From an uncultured virus (IMG/VR IMGVR_UViG_3300011815_000001) (lineage: Duplodnaviria; Heunggongvirae; Uroviricota; Caudoviricetes): DNA of 64,000 bases. Location of the stretch: the IMG/VR virus record IMGVR_UViG_3300011815_000001. One strand, 5' to 3'. The notes beneath the pieces are model-generated. The model ran no database searches and was not told the DNA's origin. It worked only from the letters and a program-made list of their open reading frames with translations. Of the stretch, positions 340 through 63,747 are shown piece after piece. How positions within the stretch are numbered: the stretch's first letter is position 1; every line of letters begins with the position of its first letter. Made by a program: the position numbers and the translations under genes.

Positions 340-959
340 TATATAATAGAAGAAACTTAAAATTTTAGGGTAAAAAGCAACTTTCTTCTATATAAATAGG
401 TAAATGAAAAGTCGATAAAAGCAGGGAATAATATCGGCTCAATAAACAAAGCATAAAAACATCATATTACTAACGAAACTATCAAATATATACCATTATT
501 AACCCTTTAAAATGCTCATTTTATGGTATTAATTTCGCAATTTCATTTGAGAAAACGCTATTAAGTAACAGCAAAGTCAAAAAATCGCCAGCACTTTTTC
601 AGGCTGGTATCCACAGGCTCGTTTGAAAAGTTTACATATAGTAACAGATTGACTTAAAAATCACGACGAAATTTTCGAGTTTCATTTGTGATTTTTTCTA
701 ATTGTAACAGAAAAATAAAAATCGAAGGGGCTTTCAAGGATTTATTTTAAAATTTTCATTACAGAAAACACTATTTAATAACAGCTTCAACTTTATATCA
801 CGAGCGAAATTTAAAAAGTTTTAATATAAATGTTTAAGAAATACAAAACTGTGGAATAAGTGATACATAGTTAACGTATATTGTATAACCATAAAGGATT
901 ATAGTTGTTAAATCAACAATAAAATATAAAACTTTATGCAATAATAATTAAATAATGTG

Positions 960-988
960 TTGACACTTATTGTATTAATTGTTATTAT
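960..988 (+). promoter_or_regulatory. SigA-type promoter driving the + strand array
   Basis: TTGACA-17 bp-TATTAT upstream of ORF 1047. Confidence 0.7.
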
Positions 989-1046
989 TTAGTTAACAAC
1001 TAATACATATTGAATAACCAAATTTAAGAGAAAGGATGGATTTTAA

Positions 1047-1646
1047 ATGAAAAATACAACAATTAAATTAGAAGGTCAGCTACAAGCTTCTTTTAGAACA
1101 GCAAATAATGAATTAGGACTAGGCAAAATCATATATAATGAAGATTCAAATGAATCAATTATCACTAATGGAAAATCATTAATTACATATACCAACTCTA
1201 AGCTAGAAGAATCACAAAACGTAAGTGAGGACGAAAGAGAGCGTATTAGTAATTTAACTAAACACCTTATTCACAGTAACTATGGAGAAATGATTGCGTG
1301 TGAATTCTACTTCTATAAAGAGGATATGGTTGACCTATTAAGATACATGAATGAACACTCAAACAGTCAAATTAAATTAACTTTTAACAATAAACTTAAC
1401 GTAGTATCGGCAAGTGTTGATGGAGATGCCTCATTAGTGAAGATACTACAACCAGCTCAAATTAATGCTCATAAGCACGTAGATATGAGTTGTACTGTCG
1501 AAATGGAACAATTATTAAACATATCGGAACTACTTTACCAAGAAATGTCTGTTGATTCCTTACTAGGGGTAGCATTACAATATAGTTCAAGACCTGTGTT
1601 ATTAGCGACTGAAAACGTATCTGCTTGCATAAGCTGTGTTAAATAA
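1047..1646 (+). CDS. Hypothetical phage protein (199 aa)
   Basis: ORF with AAAGGA RBS downstream of the promoter; no family recognised. Confidence 0.7.
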   Translation: MKNTTIKLEGQLQASFRTANNELGLGKIIYNEDSNESIITNGKSLITYTNSKLEESQNVSEDERERISNLTKHLIHSNYGEMIACEFYFYKEDMVDLLRYMNEHSNSQIKLTFNNKLNVVSASVDGDASLVKILQPAQINAHKHVDMSCTVEMEQLLNISELLYQEMSVDSLLGVALQYSSRPVLLATENVSACISCVK

Positions 1647-2336
1647 TAGATATTAAATAGAATTAAAGAGGTGATATAAATGACAACTGCATTAGCATTC
1701 GATTTATTCTTAGACGAGTATGATGTGCTGGAAGAAGGTAAACTGCTTACACATATGAAGAATGAGCTTAAATCAAAAGGAAAGATGACAACAAGATTAT
1801 CGGTTGTCAAAAACGATGGTCTAAAAAACGAAATTCCTAAAATCAAAAGTTTATTTATCAAAAACGAGATTAGCGAAAACGAAAATTTGAAAAATGAAAT
1901 ATCCTTTTTGGATTATAGTTTCAAAATCGATAACGATATTTCTGAAATCGAAATTTTGGATTCTGAGAAAATTCGTAAAGACATGATGAAGGGGTACATG
2001 GAGTTATTATCTAATTAAAGTTAAGTGAAATTAAATAAATACAAAATAATTAATTAAACTAAAAGAGAGAAAAGGAGAAATGAATTATGAAAATGTTTGT
2101 AGTGGTAGAGGTTAAGGATGGGAAAGTAATTTGGACGGACAATCGACTAAGTGACACAAAAGATGGAGCATACAGCTCAATTAAGATTTACAATAAAGCT
2201 ACAAAGCATAAACGTAATTTTTCAGTAGCGCAAGTCACAAACTGTAAATTAGTAAGTTAAGGAATTCGAATAGTCTAAAATTTGGATTGTAAGTCATTAT
2301 TCCAAAGTGGTATAATATAACAACAAAGATCATTGT

Positions 2337-2366
2337 AAAAGCATCAGCTAAATTGTTGATGCTTTT
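2337..2366 (+). terminator. Intrinsic terminator (possibly bidirectional)
   Basis: AAAAGCATCAGC...GTTGATGCTTTT hairpin with A and T tails. Confidence 0.65.
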
Positions 2367-3187
2367 ATTAGCACAAACTTATTATAATATTTTATAAAAT
2401 AGCGGATAATTATTGTTGTGATTAAATAATTTATATTGTATAATAAATTTAAGTTAATAAATGAAAGGAGATATCTTACAGTGGATTATGAATTAAGGTA
2501 TAATATGTTGATTAGGTTCGTTCAAGGAGCTAGAGATGGAATAACAAATTCAAGCAACAATCAATCTGAAGCAGTCGGATGGTATGAAAAGGGATTGTCA
2601 GACGCTCTGGATGCTGTTTTAGATGAAGTGAATAGGCTGAGTGCGGTAGGAAATAAATCAAATTAAATTTAATCAAATCAATCTTTTATTAGAAAGTGAG
2701 GTGATATATATGATTAAAACAATGGTGATTTTAGATGAAGAATTAAATGGAAAACAAATGTTCCAGTTTACAGTAGACAGAGAGTTTCATGTGGGAGATA
2801 TTATTGAGCATGAAAAATTACATGGTAAGCATGAAGTTAAATTTGTTGATATTGCCACTGTTCAAGTTTTGGCTATAAATTAGAATAAAATCGAAGTTTT
2901 ATTAAAGAGAGGTGATACATAAATGGTGGTTGTAGCTAAATATATATTGAAAAAATCGGTTCAATTAAATGAATTAGAAACAAAAAAGGAAAAACTAGTG
3001 AAAGAAATTACTCACTGGTTACAATTGAGTGGAGTACCATACGCAGATATACCTCCCTACAATGAAGCTGTAATAAAAATGGCTAATGGTGAGTATGAAA
3101 GTGAAGCTGAAATAGAAAAGGCTTTGTTAAAGTTAATAGAAAGCAATGGATTAGAATAAAAGCGAAGAAGAAAAGGGGTAACTTACT

Positions 3188-4003: not shown

Positions 4004-4895
4004 GTATGTTAACTGTACAGAAATTTTTAAATTATTTAGCAGTAGACCAAAAGGTTAAAATACTGCAAGACAAACCAAGAGAAAATCGCAAGGATTTATT
4101 ATATAAGGGTATATCATTTGACCTTATGGATGGTAATCTACATCTGTTAGAAATATTGTATGTATGCTCATCTAAAGAAGATGAACTAGTTTTAGTAGTG
4201 AGTTAATAAATAATAAAACCGATGTTTTAATAAAGAAAGGATGAGTCAAATTGGAAGATAAACATTTAAGAAGAGTAAGAGCAGTATTTAACCCAGACAC
4301 AAAGCATATAGACTCATTAAAACCGGAAGCTAGAAAATTAATAGGTAAAGAGTTTATTTTAATATACGCATGGCTTATGGGAGAAGATGATCCTTTTCCT
4401 AATGTATGGGCGTTAACTTTCGTTGATAATAGTTATACAGCTAAAATCAGTTGGATTCCTGAATTTGATTTAGATATTATTGAAATTCTTTGAAAGCAAT
4501 TAAGTAAAAGTGAGTTTTTATTGATTAGTTGAACCAAAATGTTGACTAAGAAGAGGGTGAAAAAGTGGCATATGTTGTGAAAATTAATACTTTAGACCAT
4601 ACGGATATAGAAGGATATTACACAGGCAAGATGATTCATTATAGAGATGAAGGAGTAACTGTACCTGACATCGCTGACGATAAAACAGATTTGAAGGTGA
4701 AGATTTATAAGCGTTATAAAAATGCCGAAAATGCTATGAGTAACATATTAGATAAAGCCAGTTTTGTAAAGTCATGTACAATTGAAGCTTACTAGATTTT
4801 TCGGACAAATTATGAAGTAAAAATGCGTTAATAGTGCGTTAGTTTTAATTGGATAATCAAAAAAATATTAGCTTTAATAATGGGGGAATGTAATC

Positions 4896-5213: not shown

Positions 5214-8200
5214 TCAAAATTTGTTAATCACAAAAAAAACAAAAATGTACAGTAAAGAGTTTGGCGACTATGAAGAAGAGCTATCAACGGAAGCTCTTGC
5301 ATTAATTAATAATTGTGAAGGTAATATTGAAGAAAATATTAATGATATTGAAAAAGTGTTTTTGCACTTTATTAACAAAGATAATTAAATAATTTTGAAC
5401 AAAGTATGTAGTAAAAACGATATTTTATTAAAGGAGAGTTAATATGAAATATTATGAATTAGAAAAGTCAGATCAAGCATCTGTACATGATGCTATTTTA
5501 GATGCAGTATATGATATAGAAAACAAGTATATAGAAGATCAGGAAATTGCAGAGCTATTTGAATACATACCTGAAAATATTCACTATTTAGCATTGCAAT
5601 GGGACTGGAGTGATACAGAAGTAAGGGAACATGTTTATTTATTCATAAAAGAAAATTACAGTAATATACAAACTGCTAAGTAATGGAGGGTAACAATGTA
5701 CACAATCTTATATGAAAATAAATATAATAAACAATATTGTTCGGATTACTGTTTTAATGAATTATCAGAAGCAAAAGATCATCTAGAGTCAAAGGGTTAT
5801 ACAGAAAACAATCGAATTTTTTATCTAACAAGTGATTGGGGTAATTCAAAAGCTTATATCCACTATTTAAAATTACATGATAATACAATTAAATAATAAT
5901 ATATAAAGAGGTTGGTGGGTTTATTGATTGAAGGGAAACTATACTATAGTGAACTAGAGGACTACTGGTATATAATTAGAGAGGATGAAAGTATAATTAA
6001 TGTAAGCGAGTTAATTTATGGACTGTCCAATCATAGCGCCCATTTCGATGATGAGTTATATATTGGTGAGGGTGAGCATTTTAAAGTGACACTTGAAATC
6101 AATGGTGAGGTTGCTAATATTAAGCGGTAGAACAAGCTAAATATCAACTCAAATAGAATTGAAGTTTAGTTGAAGAAAGGGGAAAGAACTATGAAAAACT
6201 TTTTATTAACATGGCACGATACAAATGGATATGAACATTTTGGATGGTTTGAAAGTGAAGAAGAATTAAGGGATTTTGTAGCATCAAACGATATACAGGT
6301 AGTCGATGCAATAGAAATTTATAATAATAGAGACATTATACTAAGATAAAAGTGAGTTCTATCAAATAGCTGAAACAAAATATTGGATAATAAAGGAGAG
6401 TAATATGAGAGTCAAACACGGATTAAGTCAATACCGTTTAAATCACGCAAAAAGCTATGTACAAGGATTTTTAGAAACAGTGAATAAAATTGAAATGATG
6501 TTTCAAATGTCAGAACAAGGCTTAATTGATGAAGAAATAGCAGAACGGTATATTTCATCAAACATCGTTGAACTTGATAGGAATTGGGAATATTTCAAAG
6601 AATATATCAACCAACGTGAAGATATGCGCTAATACGCAATTTAAAAATTTTATTGAGTAAAACAAGGATTTTATTAAATTTAATTAAGTAATTGAAACAG
6701 AATGTGGAGGAAGGTGAATGTAATGTCAAAGGGTTTTAATTGGGAAACAACGGCTGGAGTCCATTGGTCAAAGGCAGAAAACGATTGGATGTGCGGTGGT
6801 CCAACAAGCGCTACTCGTGCATTGTTAGCTTTTGATTTTGTCGGTTCAGATACATTTAAGGAACTAATAAAAGAACTGGATAAGCGTGGTTACGATACTA
6901 AAACTTTACGTTTTTCGGTGAAAAAGAAAAATTGACCACTGAGCAAACCGAACAAATTAATTAGTAAAGAATAAAATATCAGTTTTATTTAGATTTTAAT
7001 TATAGAAATAGTGCTATTTATTAAGGGGTGAATTAATGGACAACTTGGAACGTTGGGAGAAAATGCTTAATTCAGTTGGTACTTCTCCGAAAATATGGAG
7101 AGTATTTAAAGAAATGAAGCGAGAAATTGAACAAGACAATGAAGTTAAAGAACGCTACGCAAAAGAAATTGTTAAATGTCGGGTAGCTTTAAATAAAATC
7201 GCTACAAGAAAAATGAGTATGTATTTAAGTGTAAGTCATATGAATCAAGACTTCATTAAGATTGCAAATGAAGCTTTGGATAAGTGTAAGGAGTAGTTTA
7301 TGAAGCGTTACATACTAAAGATAGATGAATCAACTTATGTAAAATCAATCAACTGGATTATCATTACACTCCCAGTCATTAAATCGGGAAACTTTGATGA
7401 TGCGCTCATATTTGAAGAAAATTATCTAAATGAAGCGATAGGGCATAGCGGTTATGAGCAGACGGTTACTCGTAAAGATTTGATTATTTCACATTATCCG
7501 ACAGTAAAATTTATAAAAGTTAAGATCGTTATAGATGAGTAAATAAGTCAAATAATATAAGGAAGTGAATATAGATGGATGAGAAAGTAAAGAAAACCGT
7601 ACAAGGTTGGGAAAAGCATTTTGATACTTTGGTTATGGACTATGACGGTTTTCCTGATGATACCGAGATTTACGAAACACTTTTTACTGAAAAGGAATTT
7701 TTAGAAAACGCTATGATAAGTACTGTTTTATTTAGCGATAAATTAATAAATGTATTCCGTAATTCTATTAAATGAATAAAATGTCGATTTGATTTGAATA
7801 AAAAATATAGTAAGGGAGAGATTGAAATGATTTTAAAATTTGCAAAAGAAGATAAAACATTATGTGATGGCGGTTGGATTTTAAATTATGAGTTTTTAAA
7901 AGAAATACATGAGAAGGTGGTTTCTTTATCGGATGAAACATTGCACACTGATATGGAAAATATCGAAGCAGTATTATTAATTGCTAATGGTGAGGAAGAA
8001 TTATTGAAGCAACGTTTAGTTGAATTAGAAGATTTTTAATCAGCAATACGAAAAAATTATAAAGGAGGAAATAAAGATGTATTACTACACAATTTCGAAT
8101 GGAGAATACTCAGATTACAGCTATACAACGATTTATCATGAAAGGAAGTATAGTAATAAAGAGTTTGTTCAGATGTACAATGAAGCTGTAGAAAATAGTG

Positions 8201-10103
8201 GAGGAAGCATTCAATTCCATGATGGCGTTGCAGAAAAGATGGTTGAAATGTTTGGATTTAATATAGTTGAAGAAGAGTTTGAAATTTGTCGTGAATATGA
8301 CAAACACCAGCCAATTTCATTAGATATTATATCGGAAGACGAAAAATACTATAGCAGTGACAGATGATAAATGCCGAACAATACGAACTAATGAACAGAA
8401 TTTGATGGGTGGAGGAAAAATACGTGAATCCAGTAACATCTAATCAGTTACAAATGATTAAGAAGGTTGAATGCATAATAGGCGAAACTTTTTGTGGTAA
8501 AAGTAAACAAGAGGCATTTCTTTGGTTGCGAGAGTATGTACCCAAAGCAGAAAACATTATAGCGGGAATTAACGCTATGAGAAATCAAGTGACACCTAGT
8601 AATATACAGAATGCTAATGACTATTCTTGGGGGAGGTTATTCAGCAAAAATGTTAAGACTATTGGAGTTAGATTATAAGTTAAAATATGAACCTTTAGAT
8701 CAAGAAGGATTAGAAAATGTAATTAGAGAACTTAATTATTTTTTATAAAATATATAAAGGTTGTGAATAGATGAAAATTATAATGTATGAAGAAGAAATG
8801 ATTAAAATTTTAGATTCTTATGTAAAAGAGAAGTTATTATTAGAAAAGCAAGATTCCTTTATCGTATTCGAAGATGATGAAAACCTAAAAGGACTGCATT
8901 TTACTTTCTTAGAAAAGAAAAGGATTGATGAGTAATATAATGAAGAGAGACCAAGAAATCCAATAAAAGATTACTTTGAATGAGAAATGGAGGATGGATC
9001 GATGAAGAAATATGCAATAGGATTGTGTAGTTTTGAGGAAGATATTGAAGTAGTAATTGTTGAGGCAAATGATGCATCAGTGGCTATGTGCATTGCAGTA
9101 AATAATAAGTATGGTTGGGATGTTATAGCTGAAGAACAAGGAATGTTACCTTTCACTACTTTAGATGAAGCTGTAGACTACTTCTTACAGGGTGATATTA
9201 ATATTTCAAAACCAGTTGAGGTTTAAATCAAATAAAAGATTAAGAATGAAGGAGGAAATTCTATGAATACGCCAGCATGGAATGATAGCAATTGGATTAT
9301 GTTAAAGGAATCCCCACCTAAAGACAATGAAGAAGTGTTTTTAAAATGCGAATACATGATGCAACAGTACATAACACTTGGGAAAATGACAGAAGGTGGT
9401 AAACATCGCTTATCTTCAAAAGTTGATGAAGATTTATTCTTTAGAAGTAAAATAATCGGATGGAAGCCAGTAAATTAAAAAAAAGCGGTTCAGAAACCTT
9501 GATATAATAGGCTTTCTGAGACATGAAATCCGAATAAAAGGTTGCTTTTAATGGAATTATAAACTAATATTAAATAATACATTTGGAGGTTAGTGTATGA
9601 TTGATTTCGAAAATGGAGACAGTATTAAATTTGGTGAGCAATATTGTAAAGAATTTAGACGTGAAGAATTTAAAGGTAAGACCATAATGATGACACCGCA
9701 ATACTTTGAAGACGACAATGGTTTATATGCTTATACTGTTGAATGTGCAGGTATTTGGGATGAGAAGAATCAAGAAGCAGACAGTATTTATCATTTATTT
9801 GGCAATGACTTTGAGTGGTTTATGGATTGTCAACTAATTAAAGGGACTGAAGAAGATAAACAAACATATCAATCCATTATTAATGAACATAATGAACGAC
9901 TAGAAAAAGAAGCAGAAGGCTGGTTGGAATTTGCTAAAGGGAATGGATTTTAAATTTTAATTAATAATGAATAGCGAAGTGAAGATGATAAAAATAAATC
10001 TATTTAAAAGGGGTGATGCAATAATCATTTAACAGTAGTAATTACATATTAAATAAACGCACTTTTAATTGAAACAAAAAACAAACCAACAACCAGAGAA
10101 AAG

Positions 10104-10585: not shown

Positions 10586-11344
10586 ATGAATATAAAAGAA
10601 TTGTTACCACAAGAGCCTAATTGGATTAAAGAGAATGTTATTTTATTTGGCAAAGTGGGTAGTCATGCATATGGAACTGCAACAGAAAAATCAGACTTAG
10701 ATTACAAGGGAATTTTAATTCCACCAGTTGAGTACTTTTTAGGTCTACAGCAGTTTGAAGGATACGATAAAACAGGCGGTAAAAACTTTAAGAATAATGT
10801 TGGAGATGTAGACGTGACACTTTTACATATTAACAAATTCGTAAAAGATGCAATCGCAGGTGTTCCCAATAATTTAGAATTGTTATTCTTGGGTGAGGGC
10901 GACTATCTATATTTAAATGAATTAGGCAAAGAAATTGTCGATATGCGAAGTCAGTTCCTATCCAAACAAATTATGAAAAAGTTTGGAGGTTACGCTAAAT
11001 CACAAGCTCAAAAGATGAAACAGTTAAATTCAAATGGTAGAGCTAGAAGTGAGCTGGTTGAGCAATTTGGCTATGATACGAAATTTTACATGCACACTGT
11101 CCGATTACTTGAGATGGCAATTGAAATTTTAAATGAACACACATTAAATGTAAAACGCCCCAATGCAATTGAACTTGTAAAACTACGTGAGGGGACTCAC
11201 ACCTTGAAGGATGCATTACTTAACATCGAAAAATTAGAAACAGCGTTGCAAACTGCATATGAAGAATCGACACTAAGAAATGAACCTGATATTGATTACA
11301 TTAACAAATGGTTAGTTGAATTCAATAAACGGGCAATCTTATAA
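10586..11344 (+). CDS. RlaP/Nuc-transf family (Pol-beta superfamily) nucleotidyltransferase
   Basis: GSHAYGTATEKSDLDYKG, PNNLELLF and GYDTKFYMHTVRLL motifs. Confidence 0.85.
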   Translation: MNIKELLPQEPNWIKENVILFGKVGSHAYGTATEKSDLDYKGILIPPVEYFLGLQQFEGYDKTGGKNFKNNVGDVDVTLLHINKFVKDAIAGVPNNLELLFLGEGDYLYLNELGKEIVDMRSQFLSKQIMKKFGGYAKSQAQKMKQLNSNGRARSELVEQFGYDTKFYMHTVRLLEMAIEILNEHTLNVKRPNAIELVKLREGTHTLKDALLNIEKLETALQTAYEESTLRNEPDIDYINKWLVEFNKRAIL

Positions 11345-14300
11345 AATTACGGATTTATTAGGAAGGGACGGATATAGGTGATTGAGATTTTTAAAATAAG
11401 TCCTATGGATAGGGTAGGTACTACATCAGAATTAAAAAGTGTAGCCGAAAATGGACTAGGTGTTAAATTTGAACAAGGTAATATTAAGAATTTTGCTTTA
11501 TATAGCGATGAAGTAATTATTGATATTCACAATGATACTTTTGAAATGTTTAAATTAATTAATAAAGACGATGCTTCACTGTTAGTTGAAGCTAAAGATA
11601 AGATTGTGGATGCACTGGTAAATGAATTTAATGCTCGTTCAATCTGTTTAATTACTAAACTCCACGATGGTTTTCAAAAGTATGAATTCATTGAGTGTAA
11701 AAATTATGATCCACCTAAAAAGACTTGGTTAGACAAGATTTATGATTTTATCAATGGAATAAGTTCTTAATAAAACTAGTATTTGAAAGAAAATAAATGG
11801 AGGTAAATGATGATTAACTTCGGAGACAAAGTAAGGGTTATTAAAGTGAAAAGTGAAAAAGCAATGAATTTGTGGGGAGGTTTTGATGATATTAGCTGGT
11901 TAGTTGGGTTGGAAGCTACTGTAAAAAGTATATATGATAAAGACACTCCAAGTGAGATGTATGGACTAGAGTTTGAGCATTGGGGAGCACAAGTTACACG
12001 GGATCGAACGGGATACGTTTTTGATAAAGAGGAGATTGAGTTACTGTTAGCTTTTAACGGAGGTGAAGCGGAGGAGTTATGCGAAAATACAAACATTTAA
12101 AAGAACATGAAGTGAATTATTACAAGTCACTATCAAAGAGTGGTATTAAAAATGAACGTGACACTTTAATTAAATCTATGTATCACAACAATATTCCGAT
12201 GAATCAGATTAAATTGGATGAGCCTTTCCACGTATCAAACGGTGATTGGGATGGTGTGATTTATAAAGAGTTGGATAGGTACTATATGAACATTTTTGTT
12301 GAGCTAAAAGGAGACAGTTGGATTGATAAAAAGGATATTACAGAACAGTATTTAAATGGAATCCTAAGTAGACTAGATATTAAGTACATAATTGACGAAA
12401 AGAAATACCATGAATTTTATAAAATTTACCACGATAAAACCGCACACTTATACGGAGCAGATGAAAATTGCGAGCATGAAATCGAAGGCGGAGATAATTA
12501 CAGTGGTATCAAATGTATTCATTGTAGAGGTTGGTATTGCGCCTAGTTCAAATCAGCATTTTAATGGAATTTAAAAAAGGAGATATTACATATGGGAATG
12601 TACACAGGTTTACGATTACAGGTGATTGTTAAAGAAGAATACCGAGAGATTATTCGAGCTATGATGGAGGATTCAGAAATAGAGGATTGGCACGATATTT
12701 TAAACCGATATCCTGAGATGGAGTTTATTAGGGACTTTGCTAATGAACAACGCTCGCATATGATCCCTTTTGGAACTTTATCTTATATGCCCGATGAATG
12801 GGAAACAGATTATTGGCATAAAGTCTTTGAAACTGATACTGGCTATTGGCAATTCCAATGTAGCGTAAATTATGGATGGGTTGAGATACGAAAATTTATT
12901 GAAGATGTTGTTCCAGTTATTTCAAATAAAGTCCTTCATGCGGAGTCATATTATGAGGAAGACAGATACGGTAATATGTATGAATTAGTAGATAACAAGA
13001 TGGTTAAAAATGAATCTTTAAAGGTAGATTATAAACCTTGGAAAGATGAGGAATAGGTAATGATTATTTTTGGTTTATTGACTGTGCCTGAACTTAAACG
13101 AGTTTTGAAAAATATTGAAAAAGAACTAATTGAAAGCAATGAATTAATACAAGAATCTTTAGACTACCGAGATAAAGCCAGATTGAAAATGAGATATGAT
13201 GAATTAAGTGACTTGCGCGATGATATAGAAGATTATTTAGGAATCAAATAAAAGCAACAATTGAATGAGAGTAAAAGGGGTGTGATAAATTGACGCTAGT
13301 TATAACAGGTATCCTGTGCTTTATTATTTGGACTACAATATACGTCACAATGTGTTTAGCAGGAGGCTCAAAATTAGATTTTGATACATATGCAACATCA
13401 GTGTTATTTGGTGCTTTTACTACGCTACCATGCTTGGTGATAGCATATGCATTAACGATACAATAAAACAATATTTAAAGTTAAATATTAAATAAATGGA
13501 GGTAATGGTATTTTGGCTACATACTGTGATAAAGAATGTGAAGAAGTAGGTGGACTTTGTGACTTCTGTATTTTCTACAAGGATGAAAACGAAGGAACTA
13601 ACAAAGGATTTGCCGGAGAAGGAGTCTGTACTAAGAAGGGTGTAGATGTAGTGGCTCATGATGGATGTGACGATGACTTCTACTGCTCTATAGCATATGA
13701 AAAATCAGAATCAAAGTAAGATTTTAATGAAAGAGGGAAGCACTATGACATCCACTGAACTTAAAGAGTTAAAGAAATTATTAAACAAATACAAGAAATT
13801 CAAAAGTCGAGGATGGGATAAGGTAGATATTAAACAAGTCTTAGATATGGTTGAGAAAGATATGAAAGATAGTGCACAGCTTATTGAAGGGATTATTAAT
13901 AAACTGGAAAGTGTCTAATCAATATATCATTTAAATAAAAATACTAAATAATAAGGAGTGTAGAAATTGAAACCATATTTTATTAGCTGTTCGATAGATC
14001 AAATTACATACTTAAGAGGTGACTTAGTTATTAATAAACCCCTAAACTCATCATTGTGTTTGTCTGCATATAAAGATAAATTAGCATGGTATCCAGATAA
14101 TAAAGGTTTACCTGCAATAAAATTTTTAATGATGAACGATAAAGAAATTACATGGGCTTACAAATCAGAAGAAATGAGAAATGAAGATTATGAGCTAATT
14201 ATAAAAAACCAATTTCTTAATGTGGATTTATTTAAATGAATTCGTAGAATTACAATATGATGATAAGGAGAATAAACAATGAACGTAATTGGAGTAGATT

Positions 14301-15452
14301 TTGGAACAGGAAAAGACATTGCAATGGTGTCGGTAATTAGGAAAGCAGGAAGTAAGATTGAATTAGTCGATAGTTGCAAGGTTGAGGATTTCGATTACAG
14401 TAAATACGTTGCAAGTAAGCATCAAATTGTAGGATCAAAAGAGGATTTGGAGAAATTCCAAGCGTATATCGGAAAGGAGGATACAAATGAATAATGAACA
14501 GTTCGCATGGGATAGTGAAAATGAATGCTTTTATTATATTAATCATGTAAAGAAAATGTACACAAAGATTTCTAAGACTGAACAAAAAGAGGTGTATGAG
14601 TTCTTGTATTATGTCTACTGTGTAAATTGGAGCATTATTAAGGACTACATCACGAGCTACATTTTTGTAAATACAATGAAAGAAATTAGCGATTATTGAC
14701 ATCAAATAAATCCATCATTTGAAAGGGATTTAGATAAAAATATTAAATAATGAAGGAGAATGAACTATGGCGTTTTGGACAGATGAGTATCCACATAATG
14801 TGTGGATTAATATTTTAACTTTTAAAGGGAAGTTTTTAGATTATAAAATTGGGGAAAGTGAACGAGATTGGCAAACATGGACTATGCGATGGAATGACGA
14901 AATTTTAAACAATAAGGAAGAAATTAAGACAATTAATTTTTATGTGTCGGTGAATAATTCCGATGAACATGAAAATGCGTTCCATAAAGGCGGAGATTTT
15001 GTCAACTACTACATAAACAATTTCGGAAAATACAATTTTGGAGGAATTTAAAGTGAACAGAAAATTGATGGATTATATTAGAATAGAAAGTCTATATTAT
15101 TATGATGATATTAATGACTACTTTGCGGAGATAGACCAATGTAGCGATGAAATAAAAGCAAAACGCTTAAGCGATTTAGTGTTGTTTATTGCTGATGTTG
15201 AAAATCTTAATGAAGAAGAATTTAAAAGAATGTTGATATAAAATTAAATTTTAAGGAGGATTTATAATGAACGTAATTTATAAAGTATATCTAAATGAGC
15301 GAGAGCCTGACTCAAAATTTCCAAAGTTGAAACGTTTCTTTAAACGTGAAGTTGTTGAAAGTGGAATGGAGAATCCTCATTTAGCATTAGTGAAGTGGTT
15401 AGCTAATAATGAGGCTGGTGTTACATATTCGATTGGAGTGGTTAAGTAAATA

Positions 15453-20652: not shown

Positions 20653-21468
20653 ATGTTAGAGTTAAACAATATATATGAAATGGATTGCCTTGAAGGGATG
20701 AAGTTGATTCCCGATGAAAGTGTTGACTTAATTATTACCTCACCACCATATGCAGATAGACGCAAGAACACCTACGGTGGAATCCACGAAGATAAGTACG
20801 TTGATTGGTTTAGTCCAATTGCACAAGAAATCAAACGAATACTCAAGCCAACGGGGAGCTTCATCTTAAATATTAAACCTCACTGCAATAATGGTGAACG
20901 GGTATTGTATGTATTTGACTTAGTGTTACACTTAAAAAGAGAAATAGGTTTTAGATACACAGATGAATTTACTTGGACTAAGAATGGAGTAGCAGGAAAG
21001 TTTAAAGGTAGATTTAAAAACGCTTTCGAACCAGTGTACCATTTCACTAAAGAAAAAGACTACACTCATAATCCTTATTCTGTAGCTACTCCAATGAAAG
21101 AAGTTAGCATTAAACGAGCCAAACGAAAAGCTTCAGGTGAAACTCAAAATGGGAGTGGTTTTGCAGGATTAAGAGAAGGACATAAACTAGCAGAAGCAAC
21201 GTTAGCTCTACCGTCCAATCACTTACATATACCACAAAAATCAAACCAACACACAAGTCAATCAAAACATCCTGCTGTGTATCCTTTAGAGTTACCAGAA
21301 TTCTTTATCAAGGCATTTTCAAATGAAGGTGACGTAGTATTTGATCCATTTATGGGGAGCGGAACTACTGCTGTTGCAAGCAAATTACACAATCGAAAGT
21401 ATATTGGATTTGAATTATTAAATGAATACATAAATATTGCGAATGAAAGAATAGAAAAAGTTAAATAA
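20653..21468 (+). CDS. Orphan beta-class N4-C/N6-A DNA methyltransferase
   Basis: TSPPY catalytic motif precedes the DPFMGSGTT SAM-binding motif; no adjacent endonuclease. Confidence 0.9.
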   Translation: MLELNNIYEMDCLEGMKLIPDESVDLIITSPPYADRRKNTYGGIHEDKYVDWFSPIAQEIKRILKPTGSFILNIKPHCNNGERVLYVFDLVLHLKREIGFRYTDEFTWTKNGVAGKFKGRFKNAFEPVYHFTKEKDYTHNPYSVATPMKEVSIKRAKRKASGETQNGSGFAGLREGHKLAEATLALPSNHLHIPQKSNQHTSQSKHPAVYPLELPEFFIKAFSNEGDVVFDPFMGSGTTAVASKLHNRKYIGFELLNEYINIANERIEKVK

Positions 21469-21482: not shown

Positions 21483-21656
21483 ATGAAATCTGAGAATTTA
21501 TTTTATTGTCCACACTGTCACTTTGGTTATGAAGATATTCAAGACTATGGATTTGAAAACATAGACGAAGAGGGAGAATTTAAAATGGAATGTGAAGGGT
21601 GTATTAAAGAATTTACGGTGAAATATAAAACTGTAATTTATTTTGATACCGAATAA
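21483..21656 (+). CDS. Small CxxC...CxxC zinc-ribbon protein (paralog of 30317-30499)
   Basis: MKSENLFYCPHCHFGYEDIQDYGF...MECEGC; GGAGG RBS; stop codon lies in the site at 21653. Confidence 0.7.
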   Translation: MKSENLFYCPHCHFGYEDIQDYGFENIDEEGEFKMECEGCIKEFTVKYKTVIYFDTE

Positions 21657-21702
21657 AACGTTGATTTGATAAGGAAATATTACATAAAAAGAAGGTGAAT
21701 AA

Positions 21703-31824: not shown

Positions 31825-31872
31825 AATCAAATGACGCTTTTAATGAAATGGAATTGCAAGGAGGAGTAATAA

Positions 31873-48448: not shown

Positions 48449-50940
48449 TGAATTCCAATAATAGTGTGATTTTATTCGAAATATTAAATAATGAGAGGAT
48501 GGAAATGTGTTTTTAAATTCTGAAAGTATTCATATGTGGGTGTGGGCATCACAACATCCCTATCTTTTTGCAGTAATCTGTTTAGGAACGCCAAGTGTAG
48601 CCGTTTTGATTATGTATCTTGCAAGTAGAATTTTATTTAAGTCGTCAAGAAGAAGATAAATACATAGGAATAAGAATTTAATATGGGAATGGGGAAGCAA
48701 AATGTTAAGTACATATAAGCAAATTTCTGACCTGCAACATGACGCATTGACACAACTAGATCAATTACTGGTCTCATTAGAATCATTACATAAATTAACT
48801 AAATCAGAATTAATTATTGAGGATGAGTGGAAGTTAAAGGATTTACTCAAAACGATTGATATTACAAGTCTGTATTATAAACATGCCATGCTACGCAAGA
48901 TTGATGATTTGCATGGGCTTAAACAACTAGATGAGGAGTTAGAGAGCAATGGATTTAAATATTAAAGAATTAGCCGAACTAGAGATTCAGCGACAAGTGA
49001 AAGAAAAGCTAGGAAGTAAACTTCATTTAGAAGTTCAGAAGGAAATGAAGAAACACGATTATAAACATGATATTCAGTTATATGTAGAAAATGGTTTAAA
49101 GGTGCTGTTGCATAATAGTGATTTACTGGAGCTGATTGATAAAGAAAAGCTACAGAAAGATGTAACAAACATTGTAGCTAAGGAATTACTGAATCGGATG
49201 ACTACGAGCTTCCGATACGAGGATGAAGAAGTAGACTATTTTAATGATTACTAAGGAGGAATAGTGAATGAAATTATTAACACTAGATGATTTAGATTGG
49301 TTACGTGAAAAGAAAAATAATTACTTTAAGAAGAAACAGCCAAACTCATCTCAACCAACACCACTATTTGTCAATGACATATTTAGTGAATCAAATTGGA
49401 ATTGTGGTGAAGCCACCCCTATTCGTAACTTTGTATATGATTTAGAATACAAGGACGCTAAAAGTTGGCAGTATGAATTTGAAGTGGATTACCCTGAATT
49501 TAGTGTGTATCTTGATGGAGATTTATTTATCAATCTACATTATGCAAACGACTATACATACGTACAACTATTAGTCGATGGAGCAACAAATACAGAGTCA
49601 AATGATGGTATGGATATCAAAAGTGACTACTTCACCAATCAGTATTTTATTAAGATTTACAAGCGCAGAGGCGGAATCGAGTCGTTTGTATTAAATGGTA
49701 AGCCGATTAAGCGTAATGAGTATTTAAGTTTATTACATGTTTTACAGTCAGTTGGTATGTTAGAAGAAGGATGAATCAAATAAATTCAAACTTTGAATGA
49801 GATTTAAAAATAAAGGAGGGAATAGCTTTGATTTATTATGTTAAAGAAGGAATGAAAGTAAATCTAACACCAAAAGGACTAAGTGAATTAAGGTTTAATG
49901 TTGAAGCAGATGGAATGGAATATATCTTTATTGAAACTTGGAGCAAAGACGTTAATCAATTAGACGGTGAAATTATGAGCTTAAAGTCTGGAGAAAAGTA
50001 TATTGGTACGATGCATAAAGAATGGTTTTATCATCACGGGAAAAATGTTAATAGTGAAGTGTTTAATTTACTTACGGAGCATGATGTGAAATCTTTTCAA
50101 GCAATATTAGAAGATGGTCGAACAATACATATTAGTTGTTTAAATTAAGTTAAATTAATTACATAAAAGGATGAGCAATTAATGGGAAAAGCTTATGAAA
50201 AATATATTTTAAAGGATAAAGTTATGGATATGAAAGCAAGTGAAGCATCAAAACTTAGCAAAGAAGAAGATTTCTTAGGGTTATTGGGTTGTGGAGTATT
50301 TGTTGTAGGATTTGTATTTGTAGTATCACTTGTCGCATTGATTTTATGGTTCAATAAACTTACGATTTTTATTTCCATCGTTATCTTGTTGGCATTAGGT
50401 GTATTTGGAACGTTATCATACCAGCAATACAAAATATATAAAAAGTTAATTAATAAGGTTAATGAGCGGTTAGGTAATCAAGAAAACTAATAAAATCTAA
50501 TTTTGATTGGGAATAAAATAAAAAGAGGAGAGTGTTATATGAAAACAAATTCAATCACGCAGGAGTACTTAGAGAATCTACGGAGAGATTATTCAGAAGT
50601 AAATAAATTGGTAGAGAATGTCCTCGAACGAACAGTTCAATCCGCAAAAGAGGGAAGTTACGCATCAATTACATGTATTCATAAAGATGAGTATAGTCGA
50701 GATGTCATGCGTAAAGCGTACCAAAAGTTGCGAGAACGAAAATTTTTAGTAGTAGTGGACGAGTTTAAAGAAGAATTCACAGATGGATATATTGGTGAAA
50801 TTAAAATCTATTTAGATTCTAGTGCGTTATTAAAAGGCAATAAGTTAACAGAGGATAATTTTGACTTATTTTTAAGCAAGTTACAGGAATTAAATTCACA
50901 AAATAAGCTAATTTAATTGGATTATAAATGGGGGAATTAA

Positions 50941-51462: not shown

Positions 51463-51587
51463 GAATTATTAGCATTTTTGCATGTGTAAAACGCAGTGTT
51501 TAAAGGACTTTTTAAGATCAATATTCTCAATAAAACCTGAATTTGAATGAGATTAAAAATTAATATAAAATAAATTATAAAGTATAG

Positions 51588-56670: not shown

Positions 56671-56700
56671 ATCCCAATAAAATATCCGTTTTATTGGGAT
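56671..56700. repeat. Perfect copy of the boundary site: 12-bp arms with a 6-bp spacer
   Basis: ATCCCAATAAAA-TATCCG-TTTTATTGGGAT. Confidence 0.95.
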
Positions 56701-57439
56701 TCATCATTTTTAGCTAAAATTGAGCAAAATCAGCGTTTTACATAAATATACCTCACAAACGTTGATATATAAGGGTTTGTAGAGGTTTTACATAGATGAT
56801 TTGTTGAGACAGGATTTTATTCCAATCAAATTTTCATTTTATCGGGATTTAAAAGGAATATTACATAATAAGGAAGGTGTTATTAATGGCAGTTAAAGTT
56901 TTATTACGCAACGACAATGAAGTGAATTTTGGAATAGTAGGCGAACCGACTGGCTATTTAGATTTTTGTGTAGGAGATATTGTTATTATAGAAGACAGAA
57001 AAGGGTTGGTTGTAAAACACAAAGATAACTATGGAGTAATGGGTAGGTTATTGCATAGCATTGAAGAACTAGGAAAAGCTCATAAAATTCAACGAGAGTC
57101 GCACCACAGTTTATTAAATTATGCTGATTTAAGTATCATCCATCCTCATATTATGATTGTGGAAATCAATGAGGGATTACTTTCTGTTATTAAACCAGAT
57201 GAAAATGTAGAGAAAAAATCGCTAGATTATTTTACAGAAAAGGTTAACTATAATACAAATTACAGAATCTATTATAAGAATCCACAAGATACATATGATG
57301 ATAAGAAATTTAAAGTGTTTAAAGGTAAGATTGAAAACTTTGTGCCGACTTCAGTTTGTGCATTCTTGAATGATAATGGTGAAATGTTACACGTACACTA
57401 TCGAGATATTATTCAAATGTCACCTATCAAGGAGACTAA

Positions 57440-58907: not shown

Positions 58908-59380
58908 ATAATTATTATTAAATAAAAAGGAGAATAAAATGATTTTAGGTAAAGTATTATTAGTATTAATTGTGTTTTATGAAATGTATCGCATCGTAAG
59001 TTTAAAAGATTTTATTCGTACAATTGAAATTATGAATGAAATCAAAACAGCAGAAAAAGGAAGTAAAGAATATTTAAATCTTGGGCATGAAATGCTCAAT
59101 AATAAACAATACATATTCATTGTCATTGCTGAAATTTTATACCTGTTATTTACAGTGATATTATTGTTTACTCCATACTTTATTATTTCAATACTATTGA
59201 TTATACAAGCATTAATTATTAAAAGGATTCAGAAGAAAAATGAACAGCGCAAAATACTGCAAGCTGATTCAATCATCAGTCTTTTAATTATTCTTGCGGG
59301 ATTATTGTTGATCTAATATTAGGGACATTGTAAATAAAAACTAGATTTGATTGGAATTTTGACAGAAAGGAGAGATAGGG

Positions 59381-60711: not shown

Positions 60712-61338
60712 CAAAAATTAATACTTTAGTGTAGTAAAGTGGGCATTGGTATATCAACGTTTCTAGAGTGTCTAATTCTAATAAAAGCAAAATTTGATTG
60801 GGATTTTACTCGAAAGAGTTAAAATAAATAATATTACATAAAGGAGAGTTTAGAATGACAACATTAAAAGTAAAGATATTAAAATCATTCCAACACAATA
60901 ATAGAGCTGTGGTGGAATTCCACACAACAAATAACGACATACACATCAATGAATTAAACCAAGGTATCGAAGACTTATTCTTATTGGGAATATACCCACG
61001 GATTAAGGAAGTAAATAATGAGACCTTAAATTTAGAGTTTGTTACAGAGAATTTTACACAATTGAGAGTGGGTACATTGGTTAAGTTTAAAGATGAGAAA
61101 TATTTACAAAATCCCGAATATAAATTAAAAAATCAATTCTTTGTTAAGCGATTTACAAAAGAAGAGAATTCATATGAAGTATCAATAGCTCAATTTATAG
61201 ATAATGAGGCTGTGGAAATGATTATTTATGATTCAAATCTAAAAGAATTAGAAGGTAAATTTCAGATTATAGGATAATTTAATAAAGAGTTTTGGGAGAA
61301 TTAAACCCGTCATCAACAATTAAAGGGAGAGTGGGATA

Positions 61339-62442
61339 ATGATTAACGTCACAAATGGGAATATAGAAATTTCAAATGTAACAGCAGTAGAACAATTTGG
61401 GGAGATACAATATTACACTACACTAGTTAGTATTGAAGAATTGTCTGAGATTCGTGAACGTATTACATATGATGGGGATGCACAACGAGGGGAAGTTGAT
61501 GGTAAACCATTAATTGACCAAAAACATGTAAATCAAATATATGATGCTTTTATGAATGGAGATAGTATTAGAGGACATTTAACTTGGAATTTACGTAAAG
61601 AAAATGGTGAAAACAAGTTTGACTATTTCTCTGATACAAACAAGCTAATCATCAGTGGCGAACAGTTAATCACTATCCCAGACTCAGCCCATCGACATGA
61701 AGCATTAAAATTAGTTGCCGATACAGTGGATGATGAATCAATTTTAGAATCAAAGTTTGCAGTAGATATTTACACAATCTCTAAAACAGAAGAAAAGGAG
61801 TTATTCTACACTATTAACGGTAAAGTTAAAGCTCCAAATAAGAATCGTACACTATACTTATCAAATGATATTGAATGTCGATTATTACGAGATGTAATTG
61901 CTCAGTCTGATTTAGACGGACGTATTGAATGTGTTCGAAACAATGCCTATAAAGATGGAAAATTAACTAAATTTTCTACACTGTATGAATCACTTTTTGG
62001 GTCAAGCACAGGAGCTTTTGATAAGAAATTAATTATAGAAGACACATATGATGAATATTTGAAGTATTTCATTGAGTTCTATAACAAGCTACTATCAACA
62101 CGAGAAGAGTTTGGATATTTAAACAAAGAACAAAAAGATGAATCTAAACAAAATAGTATGGTTTTAGAAGAATTATCATGGTGGGGCTATGCTTACTTAG
62201 CCAAAGAATTAATGAATGATCGTAAATGGGCGCATAACTTACACACTAAAATGAATAAGTTTATTTCTATTGAAGGTGGTAAGTCATTACACTACTTAGA
62301 TAAAAAGTTACCAATTTGGCACGCAACAGTGATTAAACCTAAGTATAATTTCATTACTAATACTCAAGAAGTCGGTTCAAGTGTAACAAACAGTAATTCA
62401 ACAAGAAATTCACTTAAAAAGATTTTTGCTGTGACACTATAA
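61339..62442 (+). CDS. DGQHR/DndB-like ParB-superfamily protein
   Basis: DAQRG, HVNQIY, LTWNLR, IPDSAHRHEAL and ELFYTIN motifs. Confidence 0.75.
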   Translation: MINVTNGNIEISNVTAVEQFGEIQYYTTLVSIEELSEIRERITYDGDAQRGEVDGKPLIDQKHVNQIYDAFMNGDSIRGHLTWNLRKENGENKFDYFSDTNKLIISGEQLITIPDSAHRHEALKLVADTVDDESILESKFAVDIYTISKTEEKELFYTINGKVKAPNKNRTLYLSNDIECRLLRDVIAQSDLDGRIECVRNNAYKDGKLTKFSTLYESLFGSSTGAFDKKLIIEDTYDEYLKYFIEFYNKLLSTREEFGYLNKEQKDESKQNSMVLEELSWWGYAYLAKELMNDRKWAHNLHTKMNKFISIEGGKSLHYLDKKLPIWHATVIKPKYNFITNTQEVGSSVTNSNSTRNSLKKIFAVTL

Positions 62443-62501
62443 GGATTAACTCATATGAGTTAATACAAATAATATTACATAATAAAAGGGGAGTAATAAT
62501 T

Positions 62502-63074
62502 ATGGAGAAATTTAAAATTATTAACAAGTGTACAGGTATTGTTTTTAAAATAGGGGAGCGCACACTATTAAAGGGAGATTATTTATCTAAAGTCACAGAT
62601 ATTCTTTTGGATGTTGGATCAACTACTACATATTTAACAATGACATTCAGCAATAAAGAGAAGCATTGGATTAGTACAGTGGTATTAGAGAATTGGTCAC
62701 TTAAGGAATTAGTGGAACTAACGTCCGAATTAGTTAAGTTGAGTTCTTGTGAAAGATTAATAATCGATAGCAATGGGATGGGAAGAGGTGTTATTGATGG
62801 ATTGACACCAATTTTAGAACAAATAAACAAATCATATCTACTGGTAACTTCAACACAAAAGAGACAAACAGATGAAGTGCTACCTCATAGTATTTATTCC
62901 TATTTAAATAAAGCGATAATTGAGAACGAAAAATCTCTAAAGGAATACATTGTGGACAAAGATTTTGATAATAAAATCTATAAGGAGTGTGTTGCAGTTT
63001 CTATTATACTACATGAAGCCAAGCTTAAACTTTTAAAACGTGACTACGGATTTGTTGGTGAAAGTTACGAATAA
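62502..63074 (+). CDS. Protein with a terminase-nuclease-like RNase H fragment
   Basis: LLDVG and LIIDSNGMGRGVIDGL motifs; no ATPase domain. Confidence 0.45.
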   Translation: MEKFKIINKCTGIVFKIGERTLLKGDYLSKVTDILLDVGSTTTYLTMTFSNKEKHWISTVVLENWSLKELVELTSELVKLSSCERLIIDSNGMGRGVIDGLTPILEQINKSYLLVTSTQKRQTDEVLPHSIYSYLNKAIIENEKSLKEYIVDKDFDNKIYKECVAVSIILHEAKLKLLKRDYGFVGESYE

Positions 63075-63626
63075 AGTAAACTATTTAAGTGATATATGCT
63101 CATAAGAGTTTATATAAACAATACAAAAAAGGGAGATATATTATTATGACTATTAAAATTAGAAGTTTGTATTTACAGAAAGATAAAATTACCTCAACTA
63201 CACATACTCAGTTTGAAAGTATTAACAATGTTGTGAAGTTAGATGGTGAATTAAAGGTTAATATGTCAGAAGGCATTGTTAAAGGAGATGGAGAAGTTCA
63301 CGTAACAAAGATTTCTAAAAAACTACAAGATAAGCTATATAGTGTTTTAAGTGAAATTGAAGACGAGCTAAATGGCACAAAAGAGATGTTTACGAGTGCA
63401 GGAGAAGATACTGGGCGACCAGAAGTTAAAGAAAAAGAAGTTGAAAAAGATGAAAAAGATGAGCTTGAACAATTTGAAAATATGCTTGGAAACATTGTTA
63501 AAACCTTTGGTTCAACTATCAATGTAGGTGTCAAAACTAAGTTAACCTCACAGGAAATCTCAGGTATTCTAAAAGAATTAAAAACTAAAGGATTTAATCT
63601 TTTATAAGAATAATACATAAATATAA

Positions 63627-63684
63627 CATCTATATATAGTGTTTAATTCTGTATTTTAGATAATAACAACACTATATATAGATT
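63627..63684. promoter_or_regulatory. Tandem NrdR-like boxes (42 bp apart)
   Basis: CATCTATATATAGTGT and ACACTATATATAGATT. Confidence 0.6.
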
Positions 63685-63747
63685 GAAATTCCAATAAAAC
63701 ATTCGTTTGAATGGGAAATAAATATACACATAAAAGGAGAATGAAAA

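Follow-up and report, generated by a model that had tools for sequence, protein, structure and literature searches.

What is the function of a short, two-armed site that recurs between the small genes of an uncultured tailed virus, and could it be a joint at which such genes are exchanged? The question is raised by IMG/VR record IMGVR_UViG_3300011815_000001, from which a stretch of 64,000 nucleotides (nt) was analysed (hereafter the window; it includes a run of 73 Ns at 267-339). An original prediction, made from the letters of the window, saw in about 55 of these sites an integron- or pdif-like array of gene cassettes in an SPbeta-like phage. The gene content of the window agrees with the last point, with the module yopP-yopQ-mrpR as in SPbeta (33364-36949) and long one-strand arrays of small early genes, and on these features the window qualifies as an SPbeta-like phage; it is a distant relative, because a megablast search of the window against phage records gave no nucleotide match to any deposited phage. 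As to the sites themselves, we tentatively favour the reading that they are joints for the site-specific exchange of cassettes, usually of one to three small genes, among SPbeta-like phages.

The sites share the consensus aaTCCcA-ATAAAA-N6-TTTKAT-TGGGAtt, drawn from 51 sites of the window, which describes two inverted arms and a spacer of fixed length in a geometry of ~11-13 / 6 / 11-13. A search with the strict pattern ATMAAA-N6-TTTKAW gave 58 strand matches, equal to 37 distinct sites, whereas 100 dinucleotide shuffles of the window averaged 1.75 and never exceeded 7, and a weight matrix of 34 columns, built from the sites with 8 flanking bases per side and refined three times, found 51 sites on the plus strand at the cut-off score of at least 14, whereas 30 Markov shuffles averaged 0.27, with 2 at most; the family thus stands well clear of the shuffled background with which it had been proposed to compare it. 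When the sites found by the strict pattern only (2885, 4213 and, on the minus strand, 507) join the 51 matrix sites the total is 54, close to the number predicted, and the five sites that had been quoted letter by letter (2885, 21653, 23212, 37264 and 63694) match the window exactly. Two of the matrix matches, 21392 and 22824, are weak and lie inside open reading frames (ORFs), and may be false. The length of the spacer is specific, as had been claimed, with 37 sites at N6 and 0-5 matches at each of N0-N5, N7-N10 and N12; nine N11 matches are due to a second TTTGAA that stands after some sites. The predicted extension of the arms to TCCCA...TGGGA is seen in the consensus as outer arms of the form TYYnA / TGGRA. 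From site to site the median spacing is ~800 nt, and all spacers in the window are distinct (51/51).

All long ORFs of the window lie on the plus strand, and in the accessory regions about one gene junction in three has a site. The order stop codon, site, ribosome-binding site that had been reported for nearly all of them is found again on counting: the gap from stop codon to site has a median of 6 nt (51 sites), in 12/51 bases 2-4 of ATAAAA are the TAA stop of the ORF before the site, and in 40/51 a start codon with a ribosome-binding site follows at most 56 nt downstream (range 17-56, usually 17-33 nt). Since the start codon is only 17-33 nt away at most sites, there is no room there for the site to have its own promoter, and this reading was rejected. 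Otherwise the placement says little of function, because a 32-bp site with stop codons cannot sit in a gene and the intergenic gaps are short. Some sites are upstream of promoters, and these lie outside the downstream transcript because they precede its promoter: in the window at least 26397 and 43621, each ahead of a promoter-like repeat and not inside an operon, and in SPbeta those at 76170 and 99497. The matrix scan found no site scoring at least 14 between 31826 and 37264, where the lysogeny module lies, nor between 51530 and 56677, the same two stretches (~31850-37260 and ~51550-56670) that had been described as free of sites. A common polarity, that of the genes, is shared by 53/54 sites, as had been noted, but the asymmetry of the arms (G in the right arm of 29/51 sites, C in the left arm of 13/51) may be compositional because the plus strand has a G:C ratio of 1.71. 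Two further observations concern the surroundings of the sites. A number of ribosome-binding sites are closely preceded by the motif ATATTACATAAT or ATATTAAATAAT, which in some cases follows a site (9560-9580, 17585-17600, 21675-21690, 26112-26127, 56855-56870, 62470-62485 and others). There are also diverged paralogous segments, 21573-21652 with 30413-30492 and 19559-19701 with 47018-47160 (75% and 78% identity), and both copies of the first pair end just before a site (21653 and 30508).

Inverted arms between two genes could act in the DNA or in the transcript, and the pattern of variation within the sites points to the DNA. At core position 3/16 a Watson-Crick pair is present in 13/51 sites where 23.7 are expected (p<=0.001 against pairing), with one A-type and one C-type arm in 38/51, and at the outer position -4/+21 the mismatch C/A is the commonest combination; no covariation of outer arm pairs was found in the 51 sites. 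When the 51 sites were folded as RNA the median minimum free energy (MFE) was -2.9 kcal/mol and the median z, from 100 mononucleotide shuffles per site, was -0.29, with z below -2 in 6/51 and the arms paired in the best fold of 14/51. Of six sites chosen for closer folding five fold no better than their shuffles, the exception being 56677 (-14.3 kcal/mol, z -4.7). With no covariation, anti-pairing at 3/16 and weak folds an RNA hairpin is unlikely, and because the arms vary independently and RNA folding is weak the site is best read, on its sequence, as one with two arms to which a protein binds in duplex DNA.

The same family of sites is present in SPbeta, where the strict pattern gives 43 strand matches against 2.64 expected and a matrix of its own gives 38-40 sites against ~2 expected. 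The inner arms are unchanged (ATAAAA / TTTTAW) and both outer arms are symmetrically altered to TCTnA / TnAGA; again the sites are at gene ends, often with the TAA stop within ATAAAA. The late region of SPbeta (65 kb) has 7 sites, and by the matrix there is none in the lysogeny module from aimR to yopS nor in the replication module (99.5-111 kb). In the GenBank record of SPbeta two of the sites (2622-2651 and 116406-116431) are marked merely as stem-loops. The related phages phi3T, Goe13 and SPbetaL4 have 21-26 sites each per 50 kb, and the unrelated Bacillus subtilis phage SPP1 has 0 strict sites, a weak control because only 0.1 are expected at its GC content.

These relatives make it possible to ask where homology between SPbeta-like phages breaks. 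Breakpoints were taken as the ends of blocks of at least 85% identity and at least 250 bp between SPbeta and the 50-kb early regions of phi3T, Goe13 and SPbetaL4, with ends at region limits dropped (n=79), and 31/79 lie within -15..+32 of the start of a site, compared with 1.8 for random positions (maximum 7 in 2000 trials). Across 90 junctions at 83-133 kb a breakpoint is found in 18/24 junctions with a site and in 15/66 without (Fisher p=1.1e-5); for co-directional junctions the figures are 16/20 and 9/55, and when only those of them with gaps of 20 nt or more are taken 16/20 and 5/27 (p=3.4e-5). The check that had been suggested, namely whether breakpoints in relatives map to the sites, is therefore positive in the SPbeta family. 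Further breakpoints without a site are the intron and intein borders in nrd genes.

The breaks in homology fall in the arms, to one side or the other of the spacer, and the spacer itself is mostly kept. Where homology begins at a site it begins at the left arm (offsets 0 to -12), with an identical spacer included, and where it ends at a site it stops past the left arm, the spacers being different, or past the right arm. The spacer agactg follows yoqG in phi3T and SPbetaL4 and yoqI in SPbeta and Goe13, and it stands before a phi3T_112-like gene in phi3T and Goe13 and before other DNA in SPbeta and SPbetaL4; since all four combinations of upstream and downstream neighbour exist, the flanks have been swapped on both sides of it. 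There are 60 cross-genome pairs of sites that share at least one flank (a 60-nt flank at 80% ungapped identity or more, so that small indels could misclassify pairs); 12 share both flanks, 24 share the downstream flank only, and the upstream flank only is shared by 21 pairs with the same spacer and 3 with a different spacer, although neither these pairs nor the breakpoints are independent events because the three relatives of SPbeta share a history.

For the window itself relatives were available as contigs from three metagenome runs of three studies (parts of 37-47 kb), which were placed on 33000-52999 at a likeness of at least 85%. Among the joints listed (15 joints and 6 from the table of inserted letters) 42 joint ends were counted, and 14/42 fall inside the windows around 20 sites (-13..+30), whose combined length is 4.4% of that stretch (binomial p=1.7e-9). 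Non-coding DNA holds 31 of the listed ends, and of these 11 are in site windows, which constitute 15% of the non-coding DNA. Three joints span exactly one gene between neighbouring sites, by deletion or replacement (37288 to 37470, 40593 to 40773 and 44680 to 45068), and a better supported joint, with a side of 254 nt, has 703 other letters in place of 2366 and its right end 2 nt before site 46771. Four backward joints have ends in sites (47308 to 40807, 51460 to 50500, 46762 to 41882 and 49786 to 41048), which suggests that gene order differs in the relatives.

If the sites are recombined by a dedicated enzyme, the candidate lies in the lysogeny module, at 33364, where an intact tyrosine recombinase had been predicted. 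The protein matches Pfam Phage_integrase, and the residues R188, K219/K222, H278, R281, H305 and Y314, which by their motif context we take to be the catalytic set of a tyrosine recombinase, are invariant in 11/11 sequences (the 33364 protein and 10 metagenome homologs of 42-77% identity). Its AlphaFold model (mean predicted local distance difference test score, pLDDT, 77.7) has as best fold matches XerA, XerH on difH, the Tn1549 integrase, lambda integrase and Cre (probability 1.00); the template modelling (TM) scores are ~0.35, low values that may reflect a different placement of the two domains relative to each other. A phmmer search of the 33364 recombinase against PDB sequences gave no match. 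Its sequence and predicted fold indicate an intact, Xer-like tyrosine recombinase with a full catalytic set, which makes it a candidate partner of the sites, and in this respect the prediction stands. The protein has 24% identity to SPbeta YopP (E 4e-14). In SPbeta YopP (L002:28691-29767), SPbetaL4 YopP (L038:11252-12328) and SPbeta YomM (L001:40301-41302, minus strand) the box H-x-x-R is replaced by H-x-x-K, with the first Arg, the His and the Tyr kept, and because of this the SPbeta enzyme may be inactive, though SPbeta has sites. According to the accessible parts of two reports yopP belongs to the core genes of SPbeta-like phages and is transcribed in lysogens, but these parts assign it no function (PMC10516654; bioRxiv 2021.11.22.469490). 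Searches for phages closely related to that of the window returned little: the MrpR-like protein as a tblastn query matched Brevibacillus phage Sundance only (27% identity) and as a query for related loci found none in viral or genome contigs, an alignment of the YopP family found none in viral contigs, one metagenome contig of 1.6 kb and two unrelated genome matches, and the motif pattern, when run over viral contigs, had 31 single matches, taken as chance.

The other recombinase-fold protein of the module, the MrpR homolog encoded at 35903, was also considered as the protein that binds the sites. As described in the accessible parts of the source, MrpR is the master repressor of SPbeta, has the recombinase fold without the recombinase function and binds the repeat SPBRE, with ten peaks in chromatin affinity purification sequencing (ChAP-seq), all of them at promoters bearing SPBRE (PMC10516654), and the related SroF is reported to bind a box of 24-26 bp as a monomer (bioRxiv 10.1101/2025.11.27.690993). 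The SPBRE derived here, ACAAATACAAAwAATATGTATATAA, is at the promoter in 9/10 of the upstream regions of ChAP-seq target genes and is unrelated in sequence to the sites; with ChAP-seq peaks at SPBRE only and a SroF box bound by a monomer, the idea that the sites are the operator of the 35903 protein was rejected. Both the MrpR-like protein of the window and SPbeta MrpR are without the first arginine region and the H-x-x-R box. A second repeat of the window, TAATTTATATTGTATAAT, is promoter-like, with an extended -10 promoter and a conserved AT-rich box, and has 14 matches against 1.72 expected, at 164(-), 872, 2427, 17828, 26475, 27438, 32472, 33277, 37000, 43672, 44291 and 51894 plus two weaker ones; these repeats probably serve as early promoters and as the operator for the repressor that resembles MrpR, and would thus correspond to SPBRE. 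In this extraction a single ChAP-seq target, yorM, is without SPBRE (SPbeta record 110881-111597; L003:15881-16597). Within the annotated yorM ORF there is a site at SPbeta 111028 with a ribosome-binding site after it, and for this reason the annotated yorM start may be too far upstream.

How site-specific exchange might work can be outlined as follows. A dimer of the YopP-family recombinase of the phage (33364-34500) would bind both arms and swap strands at the borders of the spacer, and the 6-bp spacer would act as an address, so that productive recombination would be limited to those sites of two co-resident phages whose spacers match. The swap of a cassette that has a different spacer on each side would then keep the register and delete none of its neighbours, which would amount to a natural form of recombinase-mediated cassette exchange, and because the TAA stop of the upstream gene is often part of the left arm an incoming cassette would meet a properly terminated neighbour. 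In its fullest form, in which SPbeta-like phages run such an exchange with a YopP-family recombinase, ~40-55 heterospecific sites per genome and the spacer as a positional address, so that slots are swapped one by one and gene order is not scrambled, the proposal is rather doubtful. The predicted cassette array thus survives in part: the recombinase-core geometry, the module ends at breakpoints and the intact recombinase accord with it, whereas membership of the integrons or of the pdif modules does not hold, as set out below.

A number of points weigh against site-specific exchange. What links the recombinase to the sites is their co-occurrence and geometry, and the YopP proteins of SPbeta and SPbetaL4 carry H-x-x-K where the family of the window carries H-x-x-R. 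In relatives of the window the breakpoint check is positive as well, with 14/42 ends at sites, but with reservations: in several of these joints one side is no longer than 20-34 nt, the sites are themselves a family of repeats, and joints at a likeness under 95 often stem from repeats or from other organisms. In the SPbeta family phi3T, Goe13 and SPbetaL4 share ancestry and their counts are not independent, 15/66 junctions without a site carry a breakpoint, and the 's' fragment of phi3T/phi3Ts ends without one. The distinctness of the 51/51 spacers is at chance level (0.44 identical pairs expected), a test without power, and the polarity of the arms accords with the composition skew of the strand. 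Breakpoints at conserved sites of 18-32 bp are equally expected from short-homology recombination, and between site-specific exchange and short-homology recombination at a protein site the sequence data cannot separate.

The latter process belongs to an explanation that we regard as a real possibility, short of probable, in which the sites are the regulatory sites of a dimeric DNA-binding protein (YopP acting without recombination, like MrpR, or another phage protein) and homologous recombination, ordinary or phage-encoded, uses them as short linkers because they are conserved. The site could then be a stoperator-like transcriptional roadblock that silences accessory genes in the lysogen, with the exchange of modules as a by-product, as in the PeSL (promoter early stem-loop) elements of T4-type phages. 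The sites may also be a dispersed operator, the alternative named with the original prediction; the repressor known from this phage group has another element as its target. The same data that point to a protein site on duplex DNA are in keeping with this, as are the H-x-x-K of SPbeta YopP, the reported transcription of yopP in lysogens, and the annealing protein and resolvase that SPbeta encodes according to its record annotation. Precedents can be cited from the literature: MrpR/SroF, of the same operon, is a recombinase-fold repressor (PMC10516654; bioRxiv 2025.11.27.690993), PeSLs are conserved regulatory motifs at which shuffling and mini-circles can arise with no recombinase dedicated to them (PMC2839356), and laboratory hybrids of phi3Ts and SPbeta were joined at regions of homology at 15/16 sites (bioRxiv 2020.05.06.055103). 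However, a silencer would also be needed in the replication and lysogeny modules, which have no sites, and in the late region of SPbeta, where they are sparse, and the distance of the sites to promoters and ribosome-binding sites is not fixed. Furthermore the YopP family of the window keeps every catalytic residue over 42-77% identity where MrpR/SroF lost them, and the reported MrpR peaks are all at SPBRE-bearing promoters. A length of 18-32 bp is also short for RecA-type recombination.

Two other explanations place the recognition of the site elsewhere. The site might be recognised by the host, through its Xer recombinases or through a nucleoid-associated protein, and the phage would exploit it for exchange or for the organisation of its genome; this seems improbable. 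The geometry is like that of dif (11-6-11), and the outer arms differ between the phages of Bacillus subtilis and this phage of a low-GC host, as different hosts would lead one to expect, but the arms are not known to resemble the dif arms of Bacillus subtilis, and SPP1, weak control as it is, has no strict site. That the site is an element of the mRNA, an intercistronic hairpin or an operator for the processing or translation of the downstream gene, we consider very improbable indeed. Most sites do have a stop codon before them and a ribosome-binding site after them, and 56677 does fold strongly, but intergenic placement is uninformative for a site barred from genes by its stop codons, the distance to the start codon varies, some sites are upstream of the promoter of the unit that they precede, and the folding and pairing results, from the median z to the five sites no better than their shuffles, are against it.

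Several known systems resemble the sites in one respect or another. Among them are the PeSL cassettes of T4-type phages, for which the accessible part of Arbiol et al. 2010 (PMC2839356) describes motif-bounded insertions, deletions and replacements between close relatives. Both are short conserved intergenic motifs, in regions rich in small non-essential genes, that bound the indels and replacements of relatives, but a PeSL consists of a sigma70-type promoter and a terminator stem-loop, whereas the sites of the window have neither room for a promoter nor a stable stem and are imperfect 13-6-13 palindromes with a variable spacer. The attC sites of integrons are 57-141 bp in length, vary in length and fold as single strands. 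With integrons the window shares arrays of small genes that are set in one orientation, are for the most part promoterless and have a recombination-type site at the boundary of each, and a tyrosine recombinase in cis; it differs in that its sites are ~32 bp, of fixed geometry and non-folding, no attI/Pc arrangement is apparent, the recombinase is of the YopP family and the array is in a phage genome, and in the absence of an attC-type folding site (median MFE -2.9 kcal/mol, z -0.29) the array was not classed as an integron.

The pdif modules of Acinetobacter plasmids, acted on by XerC/XerD, alternate in orientation and match the arms of the host dif, whose geometry is 11-6-11. The sites are similar in having 11-6-11-type arms that tend to differ from one another (38/51 in the window), a 6-bp spacer and small gene modules at their flanks, and they are different in being of one polarity but for one site, with AT-rich arms specific to the phage lineage and a phage-encoded candidate recombinase; with 53/54 sites in one polarity and no alternating orientation the array is not of the pdif type. 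As for dispersed repeats of phages, the stoperators of Cluster A mycobacteriophages are, as far as the accessible part of the source goes, asymmetric sites bound by a monomeric immunity repressor (PMC9283540). Here too there are dozens of copies of one putative protein site over a phage genome, although the site of the window is a two-armed palindrome and the immunity repressor of this phage group binds SPBRE instead. SPBRE likewise recurs at scattered positions in SPbeta-like phages, and the protein that binds it has a recombinase fold, but its sequence is another one and it overlaps promoters, with about ten ChAP-seq peaks. Finally, in engineered cassette exchange heterospecific lox/FRT sites have identical arms and different spacers, and exchange takes place only between matching spacers; that system is man-made, and the spacer rule proposed for the window is drawn only from spacers retained across flank changes. 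In the accessible portions of the literature on SPbeta-like phages we found no description of this site family, and a remark in the 1999 genome paper on SPbeta (Lazarevic et al.) is possible.

Table 1. Sites and lysogeny-module genes in the window; joint ends are those of the related metagenome contigs
Position	Strand	Feature	Evidence
507..524	-	site, opposite polarity, ATAAAA-tgagca-TTTTAA on minus strand	strict pattern
2672..2689	+	site ATCAAA-tcaatc-TTTTAT	matrix 22.7
2885..2902	+	site ATAAAA-tcgaag-TTTTAT	strict pattern only
4213..4230	+	site ATAAAA-ccgatg-TTTTAA	strict pattern only (matrix 8.5)
6971..6988	+	site	matrix 17.1
7776..7793	+	site	matrix 20.6
8963..8980	+	site	matrix 27.6
9534..9551	+	site	matrix 31.3
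11341..11358	+	site, right arm ATTTAT	matrix 16.8
11770..11787	+	site	matrix 20.2
12547..12564	+	site, left arm TTCAAA	matrix 18.7
13248..13265	+	site	matrix 23.3
13710..13727	+	site	matrix 20.2
14706..14723	+	site	matrix 27.3
15687..15704	+	site	matrix 29.5
18713..18730	+	site	matrix 26.3
19515..19532	+	site	matrix 24.6
20598..20615	+	site	matrix 24.6
21392..21409	+	doubtful weak match inside methylase ORF	matrix 15.0
21653..21670	+	site ATAAAA-CGTTGA-TTTGAT; TAA stop of upstream gene within left arm	matrix 23.7
22824..22841	+	doubtful weak match inside an ORF	matrix 15.6
23212..23229	+	site ATCAAA-GTTCTG-TTTTAA	matrix 30.9
24199..24216	+	site	matrix 22.4
25675..25692	+	site	matrix 23.8
26397..26414	+	site, upstream of promoter-like repeat 26475	matrix 22.1
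27226..27243	+	site	matrix 22.7
30508..30525	+	site	matrix 27.9
31246..31263	+	site	matrix 27.0
31826..31843	+	site, final one ahead of lysogeny module	matrix 17.8
33364..34500	+	YopP-family Xer-like tyrosine recombinase, candidate enzyme or binder	Pfam Phage_integrase 1.8e-17 and SAM_1 (Xer-type N-terminal domain)
34558..35898	+	YopQ-like (DndB-like) gene, between yopP-like and mrpR-like genes	Pfam DndB 1.1e-5, below curated cut-off
35903..36949	+	MrpR/SroF-family repressor homolog, recombinase fold	Pfam MrpR_N_CB 4.6e-15; PDB 9rd5 (Phi3T SroF) 1.8e-14, 8a0a MrpR 6.4e-9
37264..37281	+	site ATAAAA-GACGGA-TTTGAT; joint ends 37263, 37288	matrix 29.3
37484..37501	+	site; joint end 37470	matrix 30.3
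37875..37892	+	site	matrix 18.6
38531..38548	+	site	matrix 24.3
38954..38971	+	site	matrix 21.6
39145..39162	+	site	matrix 28.6
39734..39751	+	site	matrix 22.0
40571..40588	+	site; joint end 40593	matrix 30.4
40783..40800	+	site; joint ends 40773, 40807	matrix 28.3
41372..41389	+	site	matrix 22.2
43172..43189	+	site	matrix 17.6
43621..43638	+	site, upstream of promoter-like repeat 43672	matrix 28.6
44661..44678	+	site; joint end 44680	matrix 30.4
45080..45097	+	site; joint end 45068	matrix 24.2
46771..46788	+	site; joint ends 46762, 46769	matrix 15.3
47291..47308	+	site; joint end 47308	matrix 29.5
48458..48475	+	site; joint end 48457	matrix 22.4
49780..49797	+	site; joint end 49786	matrix 26.3
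50490..50507	+	site; joint ends 50500, 50508	matrix 26.3
51530..51547	+	site, final one ahead of site-free 51.5-56.7 kb	matrix 29.3
56677..56694	+	site, only near-perfect 13-6-13 palindrome	matrix 33.8; RNA fold -14.3 kcal/mol
56825..56842	+	site	matrix 30.0
59334..59351	+	site	matrix 24.2
60781..60798	+	site	matrix 31.5
63694..63711	+	site ATAAAA-CATTCG-TTTGAA	matrix 31.3

The accessory genes of the window include, by Pfam match, GmrSD_N (3188-4003), RlaP (10586-11344), an N6/N4 DNA methylase (20653-21468), a nicotinamide/nicotinate phosphoribosyltransferase (28333-30099), PTH2 (41027-41371), YpsA of the SLOG type (50941-51462), a thioredoxin-reductase-like oxidoreductase (57443-58387) and a second DndB-like protein (61339-62442). 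In the second site-free stretch the ORF 52207-52938 has a weak match to sigma-70 region 4 (1.6e-5, just below the Pfam cut-off), and one related metagenome contig omits exactly this ORF (joint 52205 to 52958).

It has been debated whether the modules of mosaic phage genomes are joined at special linkers or at random with subsequent selection, and here a defined and countable linker, with the anatomy of a recombinase site, coincides with the boundaries of the mosaic. Because the sites are also present in SPbeta and phi3T, genetically tractable model phages of Bacillus subtilis, the question is directly testable. If a dedicated recombinase acts on the sites they would represent a new class of viral gene-capture system and would provide a function for yopP, a core gene of SPbeta, and if they form a cassette-exchange system it would be a phage-borne counterpart of the integron that works on duplex sites. 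If there is no dedicated recombinase, the sites would be a clean second example, after the PeSLs of T4, of conserved intergenic motifs that drive modular shuffling.

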